A stretch of DNA of 43,691 bases from a virus (taxonomy: Duplodnaviria; Heunggongvirae; Uroviricota; Caudoviricetes). The stretch spans positions 1-43,691 of the IMG/VR virus record IMGVR_UViG_2645727945_000025; one strand, given 5' to 3'. Position numbers and translations under genes: made by a program. The notes beneath the pieces are model-generated. The model had not been told where the DNA came from. It worked only from the letters and a program-made list of their open reading frames with translations, and searched no databases. Below, piece after piece: positions 1,445-43,691 of this stretch (positions are counted from its first letter, which is position 1; each line of letters begins with the position of its first letter).

Positions 1445-1462
1445 TTTAAATCAATAAGTTAC
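1399..1462. repeat. attL core: 64-bp direct repeat (tRNA 3' half plus 18 bp), identical to 41138-41201
   Basis: Exact 64-bp identity between the two positions; flanking sequence diverges on both sides. Confidence 0.85.
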
Positions 1463-2619
1463 CTCACATTTAAGTAAATCACGTTCTCCTCTTGTGCCGT
1501 ATTTGTGCCATTGCGACTTATAATTGCATCGATTTTGCTCGCGTGCTCGGTGAGATGCCCGGCTGAAAGGTGGGCGTATCTTTGAACCATTTCGAGAGTT
1601 TCCCATCCTCCCATCTCTTTAAGTGCAAGAAGAGAGACTCCGGACTGAACCAGCCAGCTTGCCCAGGTGTGTCTCAGGTCATGGAATCGGAAGTTGCTAA
1701 TGCCTGCCCGCTTTAACGCTCCCTTCCATGCTTTGTTGCTATCGGTTCTCATCTTCCTTACCGCAGCTGTTTTTGTTCCGTCGCTTCGGTAGGCAGGTTT
1801 GGTGTGGACAAATACCCATCTCTTATGGAGCCCCTGCTGTTTTCTTAATATCTGGCATGCGGTTTCGTTAAGAGGAACTCCGATCGCATTGCCAGCTTTT
1901 GTTTCATCAGGGTGCATCCATGCCATTTTCTTATCCAGATCGACCTGTGACCACTCAAGGTCTGTAACGTTGGAACGGCGAAGGCCTGTCGTGATTGCAA
2001 ACATGACTACAGGGAAGAAATGAGGAGCAATTTCTGCAAACAGGCGCTTCGATTCCTCCTCTGTAAGCCATCTAATGCGTCCATTCTTAACGCGTGGTGT
2101 TGATATTTTGGGCGCCCTGTCAAGCCATCCCCATTCAACAGCCATATTGAGAATAGCGCGAAGTATTGCCAGATGCCGCGTCTTCGTTCCTTTGCTTGCC
2201 AGCTTTGGTTTATACTCCGGCACTGGCTTGCCAAGCCGCAAACACCTGTCCCGGCTCATTTCCCAGTTCAGGCGATGGCGGCGGTTTTCCATCCCGTCTA
2301 CCGCCTCCATTATTTTTTCTGTTGTTATGTCTGAGAGAATGGTTTCTCTGAAGTGCAACATCCAGAACGATATAATGCTCTTGTCATCATCAATGGACTT
2401 CTTATCCGATTTCTCACGAAGCCACCGTATGCAGGCTTCCTTGAATAGCTTTTTCGGTGATTCCCCGAGATTTTTTACTCTCCACGCTTCTGCTTTCAGA
2501 CGATCGTGAAGTTCTTGCGCTTGCCTTTTGTCCGATGTTTCAAGAGAGCGTCTAACTCTTGATCCATCTGGCGCGACGAAATCACAGTGCCACGTGCCAC
2601 CGCGTAGTTTGATTGACAT
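1459..2619 (-). CDS. int: Tyrosine integrase (P22/lambda family), 386 aa
   Basis: C-terminal catalytic motifs (HDLRHT...W, ...MVQRYAHL); stop codon lies inside the att core next to the tRNA. Confidence 0.95.
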   Translation of the reverse strand: MSIKLRGGTWHCDFVAPDGSRVRRSLETSDKRQAQELHDRLKAEAWRVKNLGESPKKLFKEACIRWLREKSDKKSIDDDKSIISFWMLHFRETILSDITTEKIMEAVDGMENRRHRLNWEMSRDRCLRLGKPVPEYKPKLASKGTKTRHLAILRAILNMAVEWGWLDRAPKISTPRVKNGRIRWLTEEESKRLFAEIAPHFFPVVMFAITTGLRRSNVTDLEWSQVDLDKKMAWMHPDETKAGNAIGVPLNETACQILRKQQGLHKRWVFVHTKPAYRSDGTKTAAVRKMRTDSNKAWKGALKRAGISNFRFHDLRHTWASWLVQSGVSLLALKEMGGWETLEMVQRYAHLSAGHLTEHASKIDAIISRNGTNTAQEENVIYLNVR

Positions 2620-2843
2620 GCTTTAACCTCCTGCACATCAACCGCATTCACCGCGCTATTGTGTCTTACAGACTTAAGCGCCGCAATGCAGTCTGACTTG
2701 CAAATGCGATATGGGCTTTTAGGTTTATCTGGATTTATCTTTGCGGCCTGAAGTCGTCCACTTCGTATCCACTGCGTGATAGTGCCTTTGTCTACCTTCA
2801 GATACGATGCTGCCTCTTCACGAGTGAAGATTTCTTCTTCCAC
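2496..2843 (-). CDS. xis: Excisionase-like HTH protein (probable GTG start)
   Basis: Overlaps int 5' end as in lambdoid phages; homologous in sequence to the xis of prophage 2 (42238-42588). Confidence 0.65.
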   Translation of the reverse strand: MEEEIFTREEAASYLKVDKGTITQWIRSGRLQAAKINPDKPKSPYRICKSDCIAALKSVRHNSAVNAVDVQEVKACQSNYAVARGTVISSRQMDQELDALLKHRTKGKRKNFTIV

Positions 2844-2930
2844 TTGGAATCTCCATTTATTGAGTTGGTATTATTGCGGTAGGTCTGGATATCTTGAGAA
2901 ATGAACAGGCCTCATCGAGTGTGAGGCGGG

Positions 2931-3275
2931 TTAGTCCTTGCGTAGCTCGCTGATTCTTCTGTAAGTCTCTGGTGCTTTGTTCCCGTACGTCTTCATTTCA
3001 GACTTCAACAGAGCAACGAGTGAATCCCATTCGTTGAGGATGCCTTTGAATGCCGGAACGCGCTTTGCAACCTTGTCGAATGAATCTCTGATTTCTGGAA
3101 TCTGCTCAACAAGTGCAACGCATCGCCGGAAATCTGCTGCGTCATGTGGAGCGCCGAAGTGATGACCATAGATATTCTTTTTCAGTCCACATGCGATTGA
3201 GGCAAGAGTTGCGCTACTGATGCCGACATCGCCAGTCGATTGCCATTTCAAAACCTTAATAGCCAAATCTGACAT
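2931..3275 (-). CDS. Hypothetical protein (114 aa from internal ATG with GGAG RBS)
   Basis: Track ORF 2931-3302; likely start at Met10; preceded on its own strand by an intrinsic terminator. Confidence 0.5.
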   Translation of the reverse strand: MSDLAIKVLKWQSTGDVGISSATLASIACGLKKNIYGHHFGAPHDAADFRRCVALVEQIPEIRDSFDKVAKRVPAFKGILNEWDSLVALLKSEMKTYGNKAPETYRRISELRKD

Positions 3276-3285
3276 TTCTTGTCTC

Positions 3286-3309
3286 CAATAAAAAACCGCC
3301 ATCAGGCGG
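3286..3309 (-). terminator. Intrinsic terminator within early-left operon (approx.)
   Basis: Minus-strand reading gives CCGCC-TGAT-GGCGG hairpin followed by TTTTTTATT. Confidence 0.5.
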
Positions 3310-3352
3310 ATTGGTGTTCTTTCAGTTCTTCAATTCGAATATTGGTTACGTC

Positions 3353-3652
3353 TTATTCGATACGCACTCCTGGTATTTCGCCTTTTGATATTGCTAAGTC
3401 ATAAATTTGCGCGGCACTATACCCATCTCGCATCCATGAATCTAAGGCGCGAACAGCCTCGCTACGCTTTTTATCTTCTCTCTCATTTTTGATATCAACG
3501 AGGACATCAACGCAATTAAGGCATATGTGGATTTTGTCCTTACATTCGATCATGGCGGCTTTACCATGATTTCCGCCACACAGTGAGCATAAATCTTCAG
3601 GGTCTGGCTGGTATTTCTGTAACGTTAGAGGGTTGAATGTTGAACAGGCCAT
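3353..3652 (-). CDS. Hypothetical Cys-rich (CxxC...CxxC) small protein
   Basis: Track ORF; start at Met5 with GGAGA RBS; two CxxC pairs suggest a zinc ribbon. Confidence 0.5.
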   Translation of the reverse strand: MACSTFNPLTLQKYQPDPEDLCSLCGGNHGKAAMIECKDKIHICLNCVDVLVDIKNEREDKKRSEAVRALDSWMRDGYSAAQIYDLAISKGEIPGVRIE

Positions 3653-4835: not shown

Positions 4836-5231
4836 TCACTCTCCTTTTCCCTGAAGCATAGCGGCACGGCAGGCATTCCACCCCTTCACATAACCGAACG
4901 CCATCAACTGATCACTCATGGCGGGCAGCATTGTGTGGGTCGTACTGATTTCTTCCGGCACTACCGGCGCTGGCGGGGTGATGCGTCCAAGCAACTTATT
5001 TACCTCTTTCGCCATCGCGTCATATTTATCTAAATGGCGATTAGCTTCTAAGCAGACTCGGCGCATCTGATCTGAGTTAACTCGTTTAACTGGATCTGCT
5101 TCCAGCGATGCCAGCGCAATCCGTGCCAGTTCTTCCGCTTCTTCTGCTGGCAGTACAACGTTGCTACCAGGTCCGTATGTTTCGCGCCACTGCTTGATTG
5201 TCAGCAGTCGCTCTTTGGTAATAGTGATCAT
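4836..5231 (-). CDS. Hypothetical early protein (131 aa)
   Basis: Track ORF in operon context. Confidence 0.5.
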   Translation of the reverse strand: MITITKERLLTIKQWRETYGPGSNVVLPAEEAEELARIALASLEADPVKRVNSDQMRRVCLEANRHLDKYDAMAKEVNKLLGRITPPAPVVPEEISTTHTMLPAMSDQLMAFGYVKGWNACRAAMLQGKGE

Positions 5232-5743
5232 GCCGCGTTTCCTTCTTTCTTATTAACAATTACACCGTCATATATTTCATTAAGGTGCCCTCTCAACTCC
5301 ATGCGCCTTAATGCAGATAACATGTAATCGCATTCAACCTGCTTATTTCCAGTAAATGGCTTATCGTCAGGATTACCCCAACAGCAATTACCCTTGGGCC
5401 ACCCATGTACTTTCCGTACTCTTCCGTTAACAACGTGAAGTAATCCCCAGCCAGGTGGTAAATCCTCAACTGAAATAATTCCCGGCTCACTAATAAAGAA
5501 TCGCCAGTCGCCCATTCCAAGAGACGGATTTTTACGAAAACGCTTTTTTCTATCTGCCAACAAGTCAGCACGAGAACATTTCGCCTCTATCAGGCATGAT
5601 GCTGAATTTCTGAATCCCATAGCATCTGGCTGTTCTCCGGTACTGGTTACAGCTATAAAGCGGTCATGAAAACAAACCTTGAACCCGTTGCGCTTAAGGA
5701 ACTTGTACGCAATCTGACAGAGTTCGCGGTGTGTTAACGCCAT
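5228..5743 (-). CDS. Hypothetical protein with PD-(D/E)xK-like motif (PD...EAK), 171 aa
   Basis: Track ORF 5228-5815; start at Met25 with AGGAG RBS; near-identical paralog at 42890-43405 in prophage 2. Confidence 0.55.
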   Translation of the reverse strand: MALTHRELCQIAYKFLKRNGFKVCFHDRFIAVTSTGEQPDAMGFRNSASCLIEAKCSRADLLADRKKRFRKNPSLGMGDWRFFISEPGIISVEDLPPGWGLLHVVNGRVRKVHGWPKGNCCWGNPDDKPFTGNKQVECDYMLSALRRMELRGHLNEIYDGVIVNKKEGNAA

Positions 5744-6105: not shown

Positions 6106-6789
6106 TTACTCACCTCCTTTGATGCGAATGCCTGCGGCGCGGATTGCAGCGATGACTTCAGAAACTTTGTATGCCATTACCGTTTGGTAATCATCGTGAA
6201 AATCTGTTCGATGAAGCATGCTGCTACGTTCCGGGAGCGATATTTCCCGAGCATCCAGTTCCTTAACGCGTTCCTCCAGTTCGTAGACCCTGCATTGTTC
6301 TCTATCATCAATCAGATATACCCCAAGACATTCGCTTTCTACCCAACCGCCAAAATCATGATCGTAACGCTCACATGAAAACTCACCGTCACCGTCCTTT
6401 GTTGGAATGGTGTAACTATCTAATGGGCCACCATATGTCGGCACATTTCCCAATGTTGGATGCTCAATCCACATGAAAAATGCACGTCCGGTTATTGGGC
6501 AAATATCTGGCCGCCATTGGTTACGAACAGCCTTGGTTTCGGATAATTCTTCAGCGTGTTGTTTTACTTCCTCAAGCTCAACACGCAGCTTCCCTACCGT
6601 TAGCGCAATATCCTCGTTCTCCTGATCGCGGCTTTTGATGTATTGCAGGTTTCTTTCCCGTTCATCCAGCATTGCCAGCACAATCGATGGTGTTACCAGC
6701 TCATGGAAAAGGTCCGCGTCAAATCCCCAGTCGTCATGCATTGCCTGCTCTGCCGCCTCACGCAGTGCCTGATGGTCAATTTTGCTCAC
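6106..6789 (-). CDS. Hypothetical early protein (227 aa)
   Basis: Track ORF; 3' and 5' parts homologous to the partial gene at the window end (43408-43691). Confidence 0.55.
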   Translation of the reverse strand: MSKIDHQALREAAEQAMHDDWGFDADLFHELVTPSIVLAMLDERERNLQYIKSRDQENEDIALTVGKLRVELEEVKQHAEELSETKAVRNQWRPDICPITGRAFFMWIEHPTLGNVPTYGGPLDSYTIPTKDGDGEFSCERYDHDFGGWVESECLGVYLIDDREQCRVYELEERVKELDAREISLPERSSMLHRTDFHDDYQTVMAYKVSEVIAAIRAAGIRIKGGE

Positions 6790-28665: not shown

Positions 28666-28933
<268 letters not shown>

Positions 28934-37522: not shown

Positions 37523-37696
37523 ATGATAGTCAAGTCAGACGCACCAAAGTACCCTTTGCGCATCCCATTAGAGGTTAAGTTAGCAATCGAGAAGTCAGCG
37601 AAAGAAAATGGTCGCTCAATAAATACCGAGATGGTAATGCGGTTAGTGGATAGTTTAAGGCGGGATAGTTCTAAAGGTAATCTAGCAAAAAGTTGA
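37523..37696 (+). CDS. arc: Arc-like ribbon-helix-helix repressor (57 aa)
   Basis: GGAGG RBS; RHH motif ...PLRIPLEVKLAIEKSAKENGRSINTEMVMRL; directly upstream of ant. Confidence 0.7.
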   Translation: MIVKSDAPKYPLRIPLEVKLAIEKSAKENGRSINTEMVMRLVDSLRRDSSKGNLAKS

Positions 37697-37726
37697 AGCC
37701 CCAACTGCTGTAACAGTCAGGGCTTC
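37695..37726 (-). terminator. sar-like antisense terminator in the arc-ant intergenic region (approx.)
   Basis: GAAGCCC/GGGCTTC stem; only on the minus strand is it followed by a T-run (AACTTTTTGC). Confidence 0.4.
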
Positions 37727-37758
37727 GGTATCAACAAAACTTACGAGGTATTATTGAT

Positions 37759-38749: not shown

Positions 38750-40885
38750 ATGACAGACATTACAGCCAATGTGATCGTATCGATGCCTTCGCAACTCTTC
38801 ACTATGGCTCGTTCTTTTAAAGCCGTAGCCAATGGAAAAATTTATATCGGTAAAATTGACACTGACCCGGTAAATCCTGAAAACCAGATTCAGGTTTATG
38901 TGGAGAACGAAGACGGCTCTCACGTTCCTGTATCGCAGCCAATCATCATTAACGCTGCCGGATATCCTGTATATAACGGACAGATTGCCAAATTCGTAAC
39001 TGTGCAAGGCCATTCTATGGCTGTTTATGATGCATATGGGGCGCAGCAGTTCTATTTTCCTAATGTGCTGAAGTATGACCCTGATCAACTCAGGTCTGAA
39101 TTATCAGCTCAGGGTGGAGATAAGATTGTTGGTAGTTCGTATGGCGGAACCGTCTATACAGACTACAGTCCATCAGAATTCATTAAGTTTGCAGAATTCA
39201 CCGTCCCAACAAGTCTTTCAAACAATAGACAAGCCGTTAAATATATAGACGGATTTTGGTATGTATGGAATGGAACATTTCCATACAATACTGGAACGTC
39301 AAATCCTGGTAATAATGACACATGGAAATGCGTTGGACTTCTAAATGGTTTTTCGGTTAATGACGCTCAGAACTTTGGCTTCACAGGGGGTATGGACGAT
39401 GCACTTCCAGCGCTAAATGCGATGATTAGAAGCCCATTTTTTGAAATGTTTTTCCCTATTGGAAGTGAAATTAATATTTCGTCTGACTGGAATCTCCGTT
39501 CAAATTTATATATAAACTTTCACGGTTCAACAATCAACTGGATGGGTGCTGCTTTCTCAAGTTCTGATGTTGTGAATGGTAGCGAGATGGCTATTTTAAA
39601 TACGCCAAATTTTTCAGGTGGAACTACAGGGGCACTCGTAAACCTTCATCTGTCAAACTTAAATATTAAAGCAAATGATTACGCAATAGGCATAAGTGCA
39701 AGGAATATTACAAATTTCTCTATAGAGAATGTTTATGTAGAGAAAGCGCAACGTCAAGGAATTAATGTATCTAATTGCCAGAATGGATGTATTAATCAAA
39801 TAACTCTGAAAGATTGCTCTCCTTTATCTGATAAAGGATTTACTAGTTCACAGCTAGAGAGTTGGGGCGATGGATTGATTGTATGGTATGGAAGCACTAA
39901 CGTATCCATTGATAACATTAGAGTTGAATCAGGAAATAATTCACGAGGAGGTCGCTGCGGTATCTGTATCGATGGTTATGCTCCATCCGGAAAGCCAGAT
40001 TCACGCAATATTTCTGTAAATAACGCTTATGTTTACGGTTATGACAGGCCTATACATACCGAACTATGCGGTATTGTTACCGTAACTAACAGTGTTTTCG
40101 AATACAACTCAGGCTCTGACACGCATCACTTTTTGCAATGTGGTGTCGTCGTGTGGAATGTCCTTGAAACCACTACTTTTATCAACTGCACGTTTCGCAC
40201 AGATATGCGGTTTATGAAAAACTCAGGCGCTAAGGCGAAATTCATAAAATGTAATGTGTACAAAACATCAAGCACTGAGCCTATGTTTATAACAGGTACA
40301 GAGCAAACAGGTATAGTTAATTTTGATGACTGCTTACTTTCTCATGCCGGTGGTGAATGGGGGGCTTGGAACTGTTCATTAAGTTTTAATGGTTGCACGA
40401 TATCATCTGATTCTGCTGGATCTGTTATTAATTTTGGTAGCGAATCCATACCAAAAAATATCACTATTGTTAATTCACATCTGTTAAACACATCAATATC
40501 AGCACTGTTCGCACCTGGATTTACTGAAATTCATCTTTCTAATTCAACAATAAATGGAGATGTTAATTGCGGACCTTCTGCCAGACTTCGTGTAAATTCA
40601 TGCGATATATATGGAGTTGTTACATGCAATAGTGTAATGAGATACAACGGACAGAAACCAAATAAATTAATTTATTTGCAAAATGCAGACCAGCAATACA
40701 ATGGCATGTGGCTAGGAACGCGCCCACCACTAGGTGCTAGACCAGATGGATCTGGAGATTGGTTGAGGGGTGATATAGTTTTTAATCTCGACGCCATAGA
40801 GTCAACACCATTCCAATGGTATTGCGTAACCCCAGGATCGCCTGGAAGATGGGCTGTATCTGGAACTCTTGGCGCAGCTTCTTAA
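38750..40885 (+). CDS. Tailspike (P22 gp9-family head-binding N-terminus plus divergent receptor-binding domain), 711 aa
   Basis: N-terminal ~115 aa recalled as the conserved P22/HK620/Sf6 head-binding domain; remainder AT-rich with repetitive beta-strand-like segments. Confidence 0.9.
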
Positions 40886-41137: not shown

Positions 41138-41201
41138 ATTCGTAATGCGAAGGTCGTAGGTTCGACTCCTATTATCGGCACCATTTAAATCAATAAGTTA
41201 C
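41138..41201. repeat. attR of prophage 1 and attL of prophage 2: second 64-bp core copy with tRNA 3' fragment
   Basis: Identical to 1399-1462; the 5' tRNA half is not reconstituted here (no GCCGAT acceptor strand upstream). Confidence 0.85.
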
Positions 41202-42361
41202 ACATCATTAGTACCTTCCTTATTTTTTGACTGGGACAAATTTGGGACCGATGGGTTCAGAATCGAGTCTATTTGCCGTGCGTGTTCGGTAAGGTGATTA
41301 GGCGCGAGGTGAGCATATCGACGAACCATTTCGATAGACTCCCAGCCACCCATTTCCTGTAACACTGACAACGGGACTCCGGCTTGAACCAGCCAACTTG
41401 CCCAGGTGTGTCTCAAGTCGTGAAATCTGAAATCATCAATACCAGCTCGTCTCAGCGCCGCTTTCCAGGCTGTGTTTGCGTCATACCGCATCTTCCTTAC
41501 TGTTGGCGCTTTCGTTCCGTCTGGTTTGGTACAGCTTTCCTTGTACACAAATACCCAACGGTGATGATTCCCGATTTGTTTTTTCAAAACGCGACATGCA
41601 GTATCATTCAGCGCAACGCCGATTGCGCGGTTTGATTTACTCTCTTCCGGGTTTATCCATGCCACCCGGCGCTGCATATCTATTTGTTGCCATTCAAGGT
41701 TGATGATGTTCGAGCGTCTTAAACCTGTTGCCAGTGCAAATTCAACAACAGACTTTAATGGCTCCGGACATTCATCAATCAGCCTTTGTGCTTCATGGGG
41801 CTCCAGCCAGCGGATCCGTTTATTCTTTGGTTGAGGCACTTTAATAATTGGTGCCTTATCCAGCATTTTCCATTCACGCTCTGCGGCTCTTAGTAGGGCC
41901 TTTATAAATGAAAGATGCGTAGCCTTCGTTGCAACGGACGCTGGTTTTGGCGTGTATTCTGGAACAGGTTTCCCTTTTTTTCTGCATGCTTCTGCCCTGA
42001 GTTTCCAGTTTTCCTCATGACGCCGGTTCGTCATTTTCTGCATTGCTGAATAAATTTTTGATTCAGTAATGTCTCTTAGTTGCATTCCTGCGAAATGTTG
42101 AAGCCAGAATCCGATCCGGCTTTTGTCATCGTCCAGTGATTTTTTATGTGCTTTCTCTTCAAGCCACCTGACACACGCTTCCTCGAACGTTATATCAGGT
42201 ATTTCACCAAGTTTGCTGACCCGCCATGCTTCAGCCTTTAGCTTGTCATGGAGTTCTGTCGCCTGCCTTTTGTCCTTTGTTCCAAGAGACTGTTTAAATC
42301 TTTTACCGTTCGGCAATGTGAAACTGGCGTACCATATTTCACCTCTGCGGAAGAGTGACAT
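41198..42361 (-). CDS. int: Tyrosine integrase of prophage 2 (P22 Int-like, 387 aa)
   Basis: Recalled close similarity to P22 Int ([33 protein letters not shown]...); stop inside the att core. Confidence 0.95.
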
Positions 42362-42588
42362 TTTCTTTCCTCTGTTATGCCATCACCCGCGCTCACCTGG
42401 ACAGTATGCAGCGGAGACTGAAGAGCCGCAATGCAGGCTTGTCGTGTTGTGAGGTAAGGAGATTTATTCTTAGTGGGATCTTTGCGTGTTGCCTGAAGAC
42501 GCCCTGTGCGTATCCAGTTAATGGCAGTCGGTCTGGATATCTTGAGAAAATGACAGGCCTCATCGAGTGTGAGGCTGTATGGCTCCAT
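42238..42588 (-). CDS. xis: Excisionase of prophage 2 (116 aa)
   Basis: Internal Met29 of track ORF 42238-42672 with AGAGGTG RBS; overlaps int as in lambdoid phages. Confidence 0.65.
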
Positions 42589-42893
42589 TATTTCACCTCT
42601 TGCTGTGACATTGTTGAAAAATGGATACCAGCTCGTTGCTGCCAGATGATCCAACCGAGAGTCATATCCCATGCCATGTATTCGTTATCGCCGTTTTTTG
42701 CTCTCCGACGATCTACTAAGTCACCAAAACGCTTTTCCATGAATAATTCATAAGCTTCGCGTTCATCTGGTTCTACTTCCAGAGATAGGAGTGCGATTTC
42801 ATAAGCCCGGCGCTCAATATTGTCTCGAACGTCCAAGCTACCAATTCGCTCTCTGATTTCTTTAATTAGTTCTTTGTCGGTTAAAGTGGTCAT
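42588..42893 (-). CDS. Hypothetical early protein of prophage 2 (101 aa)
   Basis: Track ORF. Confidence 0.45.
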   Translation of the reverse strand: MTTLTDKELIKEIRERIGSLDVRDNIERRAYEIALLSLEVEPDEREAYELFMEKRFGDLVDRRRAKNGDNEYMAWDMTLGWIIWQQRAGIHFSTMSQQEVK

Positions 42894-43405
42894 GCTGCGT
42901 TTCCTTCTTTCTTATTAACAATTACACCGTCATATATTTCATTAAGGTGCCCTCTCAACTCCATGCGCCTTAATGCAGATAACATGTAATCGCATTCAAC
43001 CTGCTTATTCCCAGTAAATGGCTTATCGTCAGGATTACCCCAACAGCAATTACCCCTGGGCCATCCATGTACTTTCCGTACTCTTCCGTTAACAACGTGA
43101 AGTAATCCCCAGCCGGGAGGTAAATCCTCAACTGAAATAATTTCCGGCTCACTAATAAAGAATCGCCAGTCGCCCATGCCAAGTGAGGGATTTTTACGGA
43201 AACGCTTTTTTCTATCTGCCAACAAGTCAGCACGAGAACACTTCGCCTCTATCAGGCATGATGCTGAATTTCTGAATCCCATAGCATCTGGCTGTTCTCC
43301 GGTACTGGTTACAGCAACAAAGCGGTCATGAAAGCAAACCTTGAACCCGTTGCGCTTAAGGAACTTGTACGCAATCTGACAGAGTTCGTGGTGTGTTAAC
43401 GCCAT
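42890..43405 (-). CDS. Paralog of 5228-5743 (PD-(D/E)xK-like motif protein), 171 aa
   Basis: Near-identical protein and DNA to the prophage-1 copy; start at Met12 of track ORF. Confidence 0.55.
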   Translation of the reverse strand: MALTHHELCQIAYKFLKRNGFKVCFHDRFVAVTSTGEQPDAMGFRNSASCLIEAKCSRADLLADRKKRFRKNPSLGMGDWRFFISEPEIISVEDLPPGWGLLHVVNGRVRKVHGWPRGNCCWGNPDDKPFTGNKQVECDYMLSALRRMELRGHLNEIYDGVIVNKKEGNAA

Positions 43406-43407
43406 AT

Positions 43408-43691
43408 CACTCTCCTTTGATGCGAATGCCTGTTGCAATGCTGTTTATGATGCTGTCAGTGCATGGGGTAGAAAGCTGGGCATCTCCAGCAATTTTCATG
43501 ACCTCAACATCTGCATATCGAATACCGAGGTGTATCAGACCGGCTATGCCTGACTTAAGCCGAGCATTTTCCATAAATAGAACTTTTGCCCGCTGTTTTT
43601 CTGCTTCAAGCTCAACGCGCAGCTTCCCTACCGTTAGCGCAATATCCTCGTTCTCCTGATCGCGGCTTTTGATGTATTGCAGGTTTCTTTC
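43408..43691 (-). CDS. Partial CDS (3' end only; 5' end beyond window), homolog of 6106-6789
   Basis: Open frame to the window edge; C-terminus ...IRIKGE and last ~90 nt match 6570-6660. Confidence 0.35.

Follow-up and report, generated by a model that had tools for sequence, protein, structure and literature searches.

A probable remnant of a P22-type excisionase gene at a mosaic joint upstream of the integration module of a thrW prophage

In a stretch of DNA of 43,691 nucleotides that carries two prophages (hereafter the window), the gap between orf114 and the working excisionase gene xis1 of prophage 1 holds a second, partial 5' end of a P22-type xis gene, which is additional to xis1. It is probable that this fragment represents the first 22 or so codons (perhaps 25) of such a gene, which are non-functional and were stranded when the integration module behind them was replaced.

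The window starts with proA (1-1254) and the tRNA-Thr(CGU) gene thrW (1369-1444), which are followed by the integration module of prophage 1. In this module, the tyrosine integrase gene int1 (1459-2619, minus strand; Phage_integrase, E=9e-35) is overlapped by xis1 (2496-2843, minus strand), which has a GTG start, encodes a protein of 115 aa of the SfX / CP4-6 thrW type, and matches HTH_17 (E=1.4e-8) and the phrog_2907 excisionase family (E=1.2e-52); its counterpart carries an excisionase annotation in mEp213, HK542 and HK75. Beyond the gap lies orf114 (2931-3275, minus strand), a member of the HK022 gp32 / 434 ORF114 family (phrog_1229). At the far end of the window, the P22-like tailspike gene of prophage 1 (38750-40885) is followed by prophage 2, with its int (41198-42361), the intact P22-type excisionase gene xis2 (42238-42588, minus strand) and a YfdT-like ORF (42588-42893). 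A 64-nt att repeat, made up of the 3' part of thrW and 18 nt more, is identical at 1399-1462 and 41138-41201, and because prophage 1 lies between the two copies and the left end of prophage 2 starts after the second, two different prophages share this tRNA-Thr site in tandem. The two integrases are distinct and the excisionases are of one family, in that xis1 and xis2 (a protein of 116 aa, likewise with HTH_17 and phrog_2907 matches) are both full-length phrog_2907 excisionases with 43% amino acid identity, in which the HTH_17 domain covers residues 6-51 and 6-36, respectively.

Several further features of the two prophages were observed. Direct repeats common to their early left regions are found at 5217-5516 and 42879-43178 (300 nt at 96%) and at 6549-6657 and 43583-43691 (109 nt at 92%), and deletions or exchanges between the prophages could take place at these repeats. 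An Rfam match to sar RNA (37691-37757, minus strand; 67.4 bits), an antisense RNA that belongs to the immI region of P22, is consistent with a prophage 1 that has P22-like late and immI regions and a non-P22 integration module. Prophage 1 also contains a perfect run of CAGAGC hexanucleotide repeats (28799-28906), in which 36-nt copies recur at a spacing of 12 nt. A search of complete E. coli genomes did not recover the junction that joins prophage 2 to the tailspike end, as matches there begin only past the latter (query position 240).

The 46-mer by which the fragment was recognised occurs exactly at 2882-2927 and, with three mismatches (43/46), at 42530-42575 within xis2; the mismatches (TGT TCA TTT versus TGT CAT TTT) leave the frame unaffected, and the repeat pair extends to 55 nt at 89% identity (2873-2927 versus 42521-42575). 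Measured from start to start, the in-register repeat of the two xis genes has a spacing of 39745, the int and att repeats have one of 39739, and the relic pair has one of 39648, which puts it 97 bp out of register with the collinear homology between xis1 and xis2. A global MAFFT alignment of 2600-2960 with 42340-42680 paired xis2 with xis1 in register, so that the relic came to lie opposite unrelated sequence; it showed the displacement of the relic in this way and is unsuited to mapping it. The identity of the relic pair is 93%, as opposed to about 60% for the in-register segments of xis1 and xis2. Because of this displacement from the register, the 46-mer is a second, partial xis 5' end. The preliminary description had read it as the relic of a second excisionase 5' end, near-identical to the part of the prophage 2 xis that encodes the N-terminal HTH segment, outside the current xis ORF and followed in frame by a stop, and it is borne out in each of these respects; the similarity is an isolated fragment, rather than a part of longer collinear homology.

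As delimited here, the relic occupies 2876-2927 on the minus strand and corresponds to codons 5-22 of P22-type xis, with its counterpart in xis2 at 42524-42575. It is identical at 52/52 positions to an intact xis gene of 116 aa on an IMG/VR contig (L101), at 50/52 to P22 xis and at 47/52 to xis2, and because it is both identical to and in frame with the intact gene, its origin is coding. The site as a whole is an 87-bp gap that runs from the orf114 stop (2931-2933) to the GTG start of xis1 (2843). On its upstream side, a CCC spacer (2928-2930, minus strand) remains from the xis start region after deletion, and on its downstream side lies the leader of xis1 itself (2844-2862, minus strand), with the ribosome-binding site GGAG at 2851-2854. 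In the frame of xis, 22 xis-derived codons, without a start codon, are followed by a TAA (2857-2859) that belongs to this leader. Between relic and leader, the segment AATAATACCAACT (2863-2875, minus strand) resembles P22 xis ..CACCAACT.. after a 5-nt indel and is a possible continuation of the relic, although its membership is uncertain, and the homology to P22-type xis therefore ends either at 2876 or at 2863, where the affinity of the sequence changes. A start codon with a ribosome-binding site and an ORF of ~116 codons covering the HTH domain, as in a functional P22-type excisionase gene, are both absent from the relic: the orf114 TAA is followed by CCC and then by xis codon 5, and the ATG GAA TCA CAC A of intact xis genes is deleted.

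The two edges of the fragment have different origins. Intact P22-type xis genes start as ..TAA CC ATG GAA TCA CAC A/GC CTC ACA.., and in carriers of the relic the sequence between the orf114 stop and GCCTCA is CTATGGAATCACACA (complete), CCATGAAATAACACC (ATG kept, with a nonsense codon), CCACA, CCC (the window) or C. These spacers form a nested deletion series, and the 5' edge of the relic is the original start of the gene beside orf114, without a recombination joint, leaving the 3' edge as the one joint. In two contigs (L039 and L068), an intact gene occupies this position: the orf114 3' end is followed by TAA CT ATG and then by a full-length P22-type xis, and this order is presumed to be the ancestral arrangement. 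The earlier reading of the stretch as a recombination scar thus stands with regard to the replacement of an int-xis module at the 3' end; it does not extend to the 5' end, which is better described as an eroded gene start.

The same arrangement is found in many phages. The whole gap together with xis1 recurs in mEp213, mEp043, HK542, HK75, HK446, mEpX2 and ECP1, and in the free phage mEp213 the relic is identical to that of the window. The fragment and orf114 recur at 93-98% in HK022, 434 and many Stx phages, the fragment itself recurs at 96% in HK97, and lambda is without relic and without orf114. Since the fragment is present in the lambda-like siphoviruses HK022, HK97, 434, mEp213, HK542 and HK75 and in Stx phages, the exchange, which the preliminary description placed between P22-like phages, is confined neither to such phages nor to the two prophages of the window. 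In every non-P22 carrier viewed, the 3' end of orf114 (encoding ..KAPETYRRISELRKD and the stop) is directly before the fragment, including HK97, HK542, HK75 and ECP1, where merely ~45 nt of orf114 are left. Among the IMG/VR matches listed, the orf114 3' end is followed by the fragment in 127/127 instances (74 distinct sequences), and when relatives were surveyed for the joint of the window, 70/70 listed modules of the xis1 type were found to carry the fragment with the same joint, with the leader conserved in all; the lists comprised at most 120 stretches each and two of these scans were anchored on exact patterns, so that the proportions are biased and the counts are indicative. In complete E. 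coli genomes, 997/5426 match part of 2800-3000 of the window, a segment that spans the joint, and 96 match at least 80% of it.

Because all 70 listed xis1 modules share this joint, the scar of the xis1 lineage, as judged from these comparisons, appears to go back to one event, which is old and has been inherited with the module. An Enterobacter asburiae module of the xis1 type (L282), whose relic has a 6-nt deletion inside, suggests that the joint is older than the Escherichia/Enterobacter split of the module. In L282 the relic runs ..CCCACC-AACTG, followed by a divergent leader before the GTG, and ACCAACT is also present in the window at 2863-2869; these matches are short, and they suggest that the joint may truly lie after ACCAACT (window 2863), with the E. 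coli version having undergone the 5-nt indel. Two metagenome-assembled genomes have unexpected labels, namely one labelled Segatella copri (L275), which contains the orf114-relic-xis1 unit, and one labelled Bacillota (L281), which contains an intact P22-type xis; both are probably mis-binned enterobacterial phage sequence.

The following order of events would account for the fragment. An ancestral lambdoid phage would have carried orf114 directly before a P22-type xis and int, and the leader of an incoming xis-int module (SfX / CP4-6 thrW type) would have become attached to that xis by illegitimate recombination at about codon 22-25, with the result that the old xis 5' end was left isolated behind the orf114 stop and ahead of the newly acquired ribosome-binding site. 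Small deletions would then have removed the start codon of the fragment, substitutions and indels would have accumulated in it at a roughly neutral rate, and it would have been passed on ever since as a constant component of this module. Being common to intact P22-type xis genes and other relic carriers, it may offer ~50 bp of crossover homology to phage recombinases, and this shared homology would explain why several upstream genes and several int-xis modules are found at the fragment.

On its 3' side, the fragment has been joined to integration modules of several kinds, for which joint positions are given here in P22 Xis codon numbering and a slash marks the joint. In the window and other xis1-type modules, the joint to the xis1 leader (joint A) lies after codon 22, perhaps 25 (..CCTACCGC/AATAATACCAACT..). 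In HK022, HK97 and 434, the joint lies after codon 21 (joint B; ..CCTACC/ATCGCCGCATCAATGCGGCTTTTT) and is followed by a terminator, pI and a lambda-type xis, and IMG/VR contigs show a second joint after the same hairpin, leading to a different module (joint B'). In Stx phages and mEp234, a terminator and an AlpA-type xis follow at about codons 13-16, a position not defined to the nucleotide (joint C). Two joints after codon 18 (..AAGATATCC/), both in IMG/VR contigs, lead to a terminator and then a lambda-like xis (joint D) and to an unrelated module (joint E), respectively, and two further modules are reached after codon 15 (joint F; ..GCATTTCTCA/) in an IMG/VR contig, similarly in Enterobacter (L272), and after codon 13 (joint G; ..GGCCTGTGCG/) in an IMG/VR contig, similarly in Enterobacter (L277). 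There are thus at least seven joints, all of which lie within codons 13-25 of a gene of 116 codons.

Certain readings around these joints were dropped. The xis1 joint was at first taken to be at the same nucleotide as the lambda-type joint (..CCTACC/), and the E. asburiae module and ACCAACT suggest that it lies ~13 nt further on; near-coincident joints are expected anyway with about 7 joints in about 30 nt. Lambda was discarded as the right-side reference for joint B, as it has a different terminator hairpin and no relic, and joint B is not placed to the nucleotide. In HK022 (L001) and some others, the relic frame passes without a stop across the terminator hairpin and continues into that of the lambda-type xis (..SRPTIAASMRLFLACNCGDFA-MYLTLQEW..); a chimeric relic-Xis protein was rejected as probably a coincidence, there being no start codon and other alleles being off frame by 1 nt.

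If breakage were uniform and independent, the chance that 7 joints fall within the first 26/116 codons would be (26/116)^7 = 3e-5. Relics longer than about 26 xis codons were not found among the carriers surveyed, and because none exceeds about 26/116 codons, they are all without a complete HTH_17 domain. Such clustering is not predicted by simple random breakage, and could result from serial replacement confined to the gap, from trimming constrained by packaging, or from selection against fragments that hold the whole HTH. Joint B' is an example of serial replacement confined to the non-coding gap.

Exchange also appears to have taken place inside the fragment. At least five upstream contexts of the relic or xis (orf114, YfdT-like, U3, U4 and others) and at least seven downstream modules have been found, so that a conserved patch lies between alternative, non-homologous modules on both sides, and within about 70 nt nearly every combination of spacer type, T-insertion allele and joint type is represented. 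In the U3 context, the polymorphisms of the relics resemble those of intact xis alleles behind the same U3 gene. The simplest reading of this reassortment of markers would be homologous exchange that recurred within a patch of ~50-70 nt or at its borders, with recurrent mutation as a formal alternative. Relaxed recombination at short homology by phage Rad52-like recombinases has been shown experimentally for lambdoid mosaics (PMC3945230), and exchange inside the patch is consistent with it.

These observations raise the question of whether the fragment has been kept as a useful recombination linker, or whether its length has been set by selection against longer Xis fragments that are capable of binding DNA. 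The diversity of genes and modules that flank the fragment, the free reassortment of its markers the constant lack of a complete HTH_17 and the low probability of the joint clustering under uniform breakage would all fit such selection. However, the use of the patch for crossovers requires no selection for that use and does not show it, nested short relics are also produced by gap-confined serial replacement (which joint B' supports) or by trimming under packaging pressure, the independence of the joints is not established, and the diversity of the relic is near neutral, so that selection of either kind is considered unlikely. The related idea that the first ~25 codons of P22-type xis constitute a hub for the exchange of integration cassettes, with the joints clustered by selection or by a mechanistic hotspot rather than by random breakage and subsequent trimming, is also considered unlikely and is put forward tentatively. 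Replacement of the integration module, leaving a functionless 5' end behind, is retained as the preferred reading.

With regard to a present-day role, the one structural feature of the relic is a hairpin with a 6-bp stem, GCCTCA-N7-TGAGGC (2909-2927), which has four GC pairs, is followed by CTGTTCATTT, and passes a lax terminator scan. Of four stem substitutions in carriers, three keep G-U pairing and one breaks the closing pair. These features, together with the presence of the relic in all listed xis1 modules, would suit a working cis element, that is, a terminator or RNA hairpin after orf114 or a part of the regulatory leader of xis1. As opposed to this, the relic folds no better than expected (z = -0.31, with 66/200 shuffles folding as well or better), and in three IMG/VR contigs a 14-nt deletion between 3-nt direct repeats (GCC[TCACACTCGATGAG]GCC) removes the hairpin; on these two grounds the functional RNA or terminator was rejected as the main explanation. 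Furthermore, the pairing arises from coding sequence, namely the Xis codons for S-L and E-A, and intact genes have the same stem; in carriers of the lambda and AlpA types, the relic is directly followed by a far stronger terminator hairpin. No sigma-70-like promoter was found in 2400-3400, no CII-type TTGC-N6-TTGC site was seen by eye in the gap sequence, and a search of the whole window with Rfam at gathering score gave no match at the relic locus. A cis-acting function of the stretch is thus very unlikely.

The pattern of variation points in the same direction as the stranded-fragment reading. Over 50 nt, and with indel alleles left out, the relic has a pairwise diversity of 0.046; for the adjoining orf114 the values are 0.0185 (codon position 1), 0.013 (position 2) and 0.070 (position 3), which places the relic slightly under the third codon positions, on the basis of 50 sites. 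Across carriers, the lesions of the relic comprise the nested deletions at its 5' side, an insertion of 1 nt that many alleles share, a nonsense version (ATG AAA TAA) and the 14-nt deletion, that is, inactivating lesions combined with roughly neutral evolution, as in a gene remnant. Because of these diversity values and the frameshifting insertion in many alleles, the variation fits a relic that drifts close to neutrally, and the relic is probably without function at present. Its presence in every listed xis1 module and after every listed orf114 3' end could alternatively reflect constraint.

A separate observation concerns the upstream border of orf114. The ORF finder called this gene at 2931-3302 (123 aa), homologues in 434, HK022 and mEp213 have 114 aa, and the nine extra codons overlap a terminator hairpin; the start is likely to be the ATG at 3275, behind a GGAG. 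The hairpin, CCGCCTGATGGCGG followed by T6 (3296-3309, minus strand), lies just upstream of the orf114 start and is the same as the lambda terminator before xis (tL3). Because this CCGCCTGATGGCGG hairpin precedes orf114, orf114 and the relic are bracketed by two terminators in lambda-type carriers, resembling a 'moron'-like inserted unit.

A recent origin of the fragment within this genome, with the tandem thrW prophages as partners in recombination or gene conversion, is highly improbable. The two prophages do lie side by side at one att site and share the 300-nt (96%) and 109-nt (92%) repeats described above; however, the relic differs from xis2 at 5/52 positions and from the intact L101 allele at 0/52, so that prophage 2 is not the donor, and it is identical in mEp213; the same joint is present in the seven independently isolated phages listed above (mEp213 to ECP1) as well as in the 70/70 listed modules. 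Least of all can the similarity be attributed to chance, or to the collinear homology of xis1 and xis2, homologues though these are at 43% amino acid identity, as a second match to the 46-mer was obtained in 0/100 dinucleotide-preserving shuffles and the pair is 97 bp out of register at 93% versus about 60% identity, which leaves this explanation a negligible probability.

The kind of feature described here, a gene remnant at a mosaic joint, is well known in lambdoid phages. Gene remnants at novel joints of mosaic lambdoid genomes were reportedly described for HK97 and HK022 by Juhala et al. in 2000, and the relic of the window is like these in that it is short and represents only part of a gene of which other phages have intact copies, is situated in a non-coding gap at the border of two modules of different ancestry, and bears inactivating lesions. 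It is unlike the usual remnants in being unusually widespread (part of 2800-3000 is matched in 997/5426 complete E. coli genomes) and in forming the left edge for at least seven int-xis modules. When compared with P22-type xis itself (phrog_2907, HTH_17), the relic has 96-100% nucleotide identity to codons 5-22, the same orientation and a position just upstream of an int-xis module, but it comprises only ~52-65/351 nt, lacks a start codon, meets a stop after 22 codons and is too short to encode the HTH domain, and the working excisionase xis1, which starts 33 bp past the relic, is a different allele with 43% identity.

Linker or boundary sequences between modules are said to be part of the modular theory of Susskind and Botstein. 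Traces of homology at mosaic borders were described by De Paepe et al. 2014 (PMC3945230). The relic is like both in being a short patch of high identity between unrelated flanks with crossovers inside, and unlike the Susskind-Botstein linker in that it originated as a decayed coding fragment and not as a dedicated site. A further comparison is with the tL3 region of lambda and the t'-I region of 434, as in HK022, HK97 and 434 the relic directly precedes that terminator, and it has a small hairpin; its hairpin is unlike lambda tL3 in that it is weak, no clean T-run comes after it and some alleles do without it, and lambda has no relic. The relic behaves like a linker that need not be maintained as one; the promoter reading finds no support in the sequence and the terminator reading is not convincing. 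No annotation of the relic was found in the phage records examined, including those of 434 (M60848) and HK022 (X51962), and a literature search, whose reach ended short of the older 434, HK022 and HK97 papers, found no published description of it.

For annotation, the segment 2863-2930 is to be treated as an xis pseudogene fragment, rather than as a regulatory element or a small ORF, and it would be the wrong evidence for recent recombination between the two tandem prophages. It serves instead as a clean, datable marker, which indicates that the SfX-type thrW module of E. coli phages was derived from one replacement of a P22-type xis, and that HK022, HK97, 434, the mEp phages and the Stx phages inherited the unit of orf114 and fragment before they acquired their present integration modules. 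The layered joints, in which the relic is followed by a retained terminator hairpin and then by a new module, provide a small worked case of serial cassette replacement, and if the clustering of the joints is non-random, it would bear on the extent to which the boundaries of phage mosaics are set by mechanism as opposed to selection.
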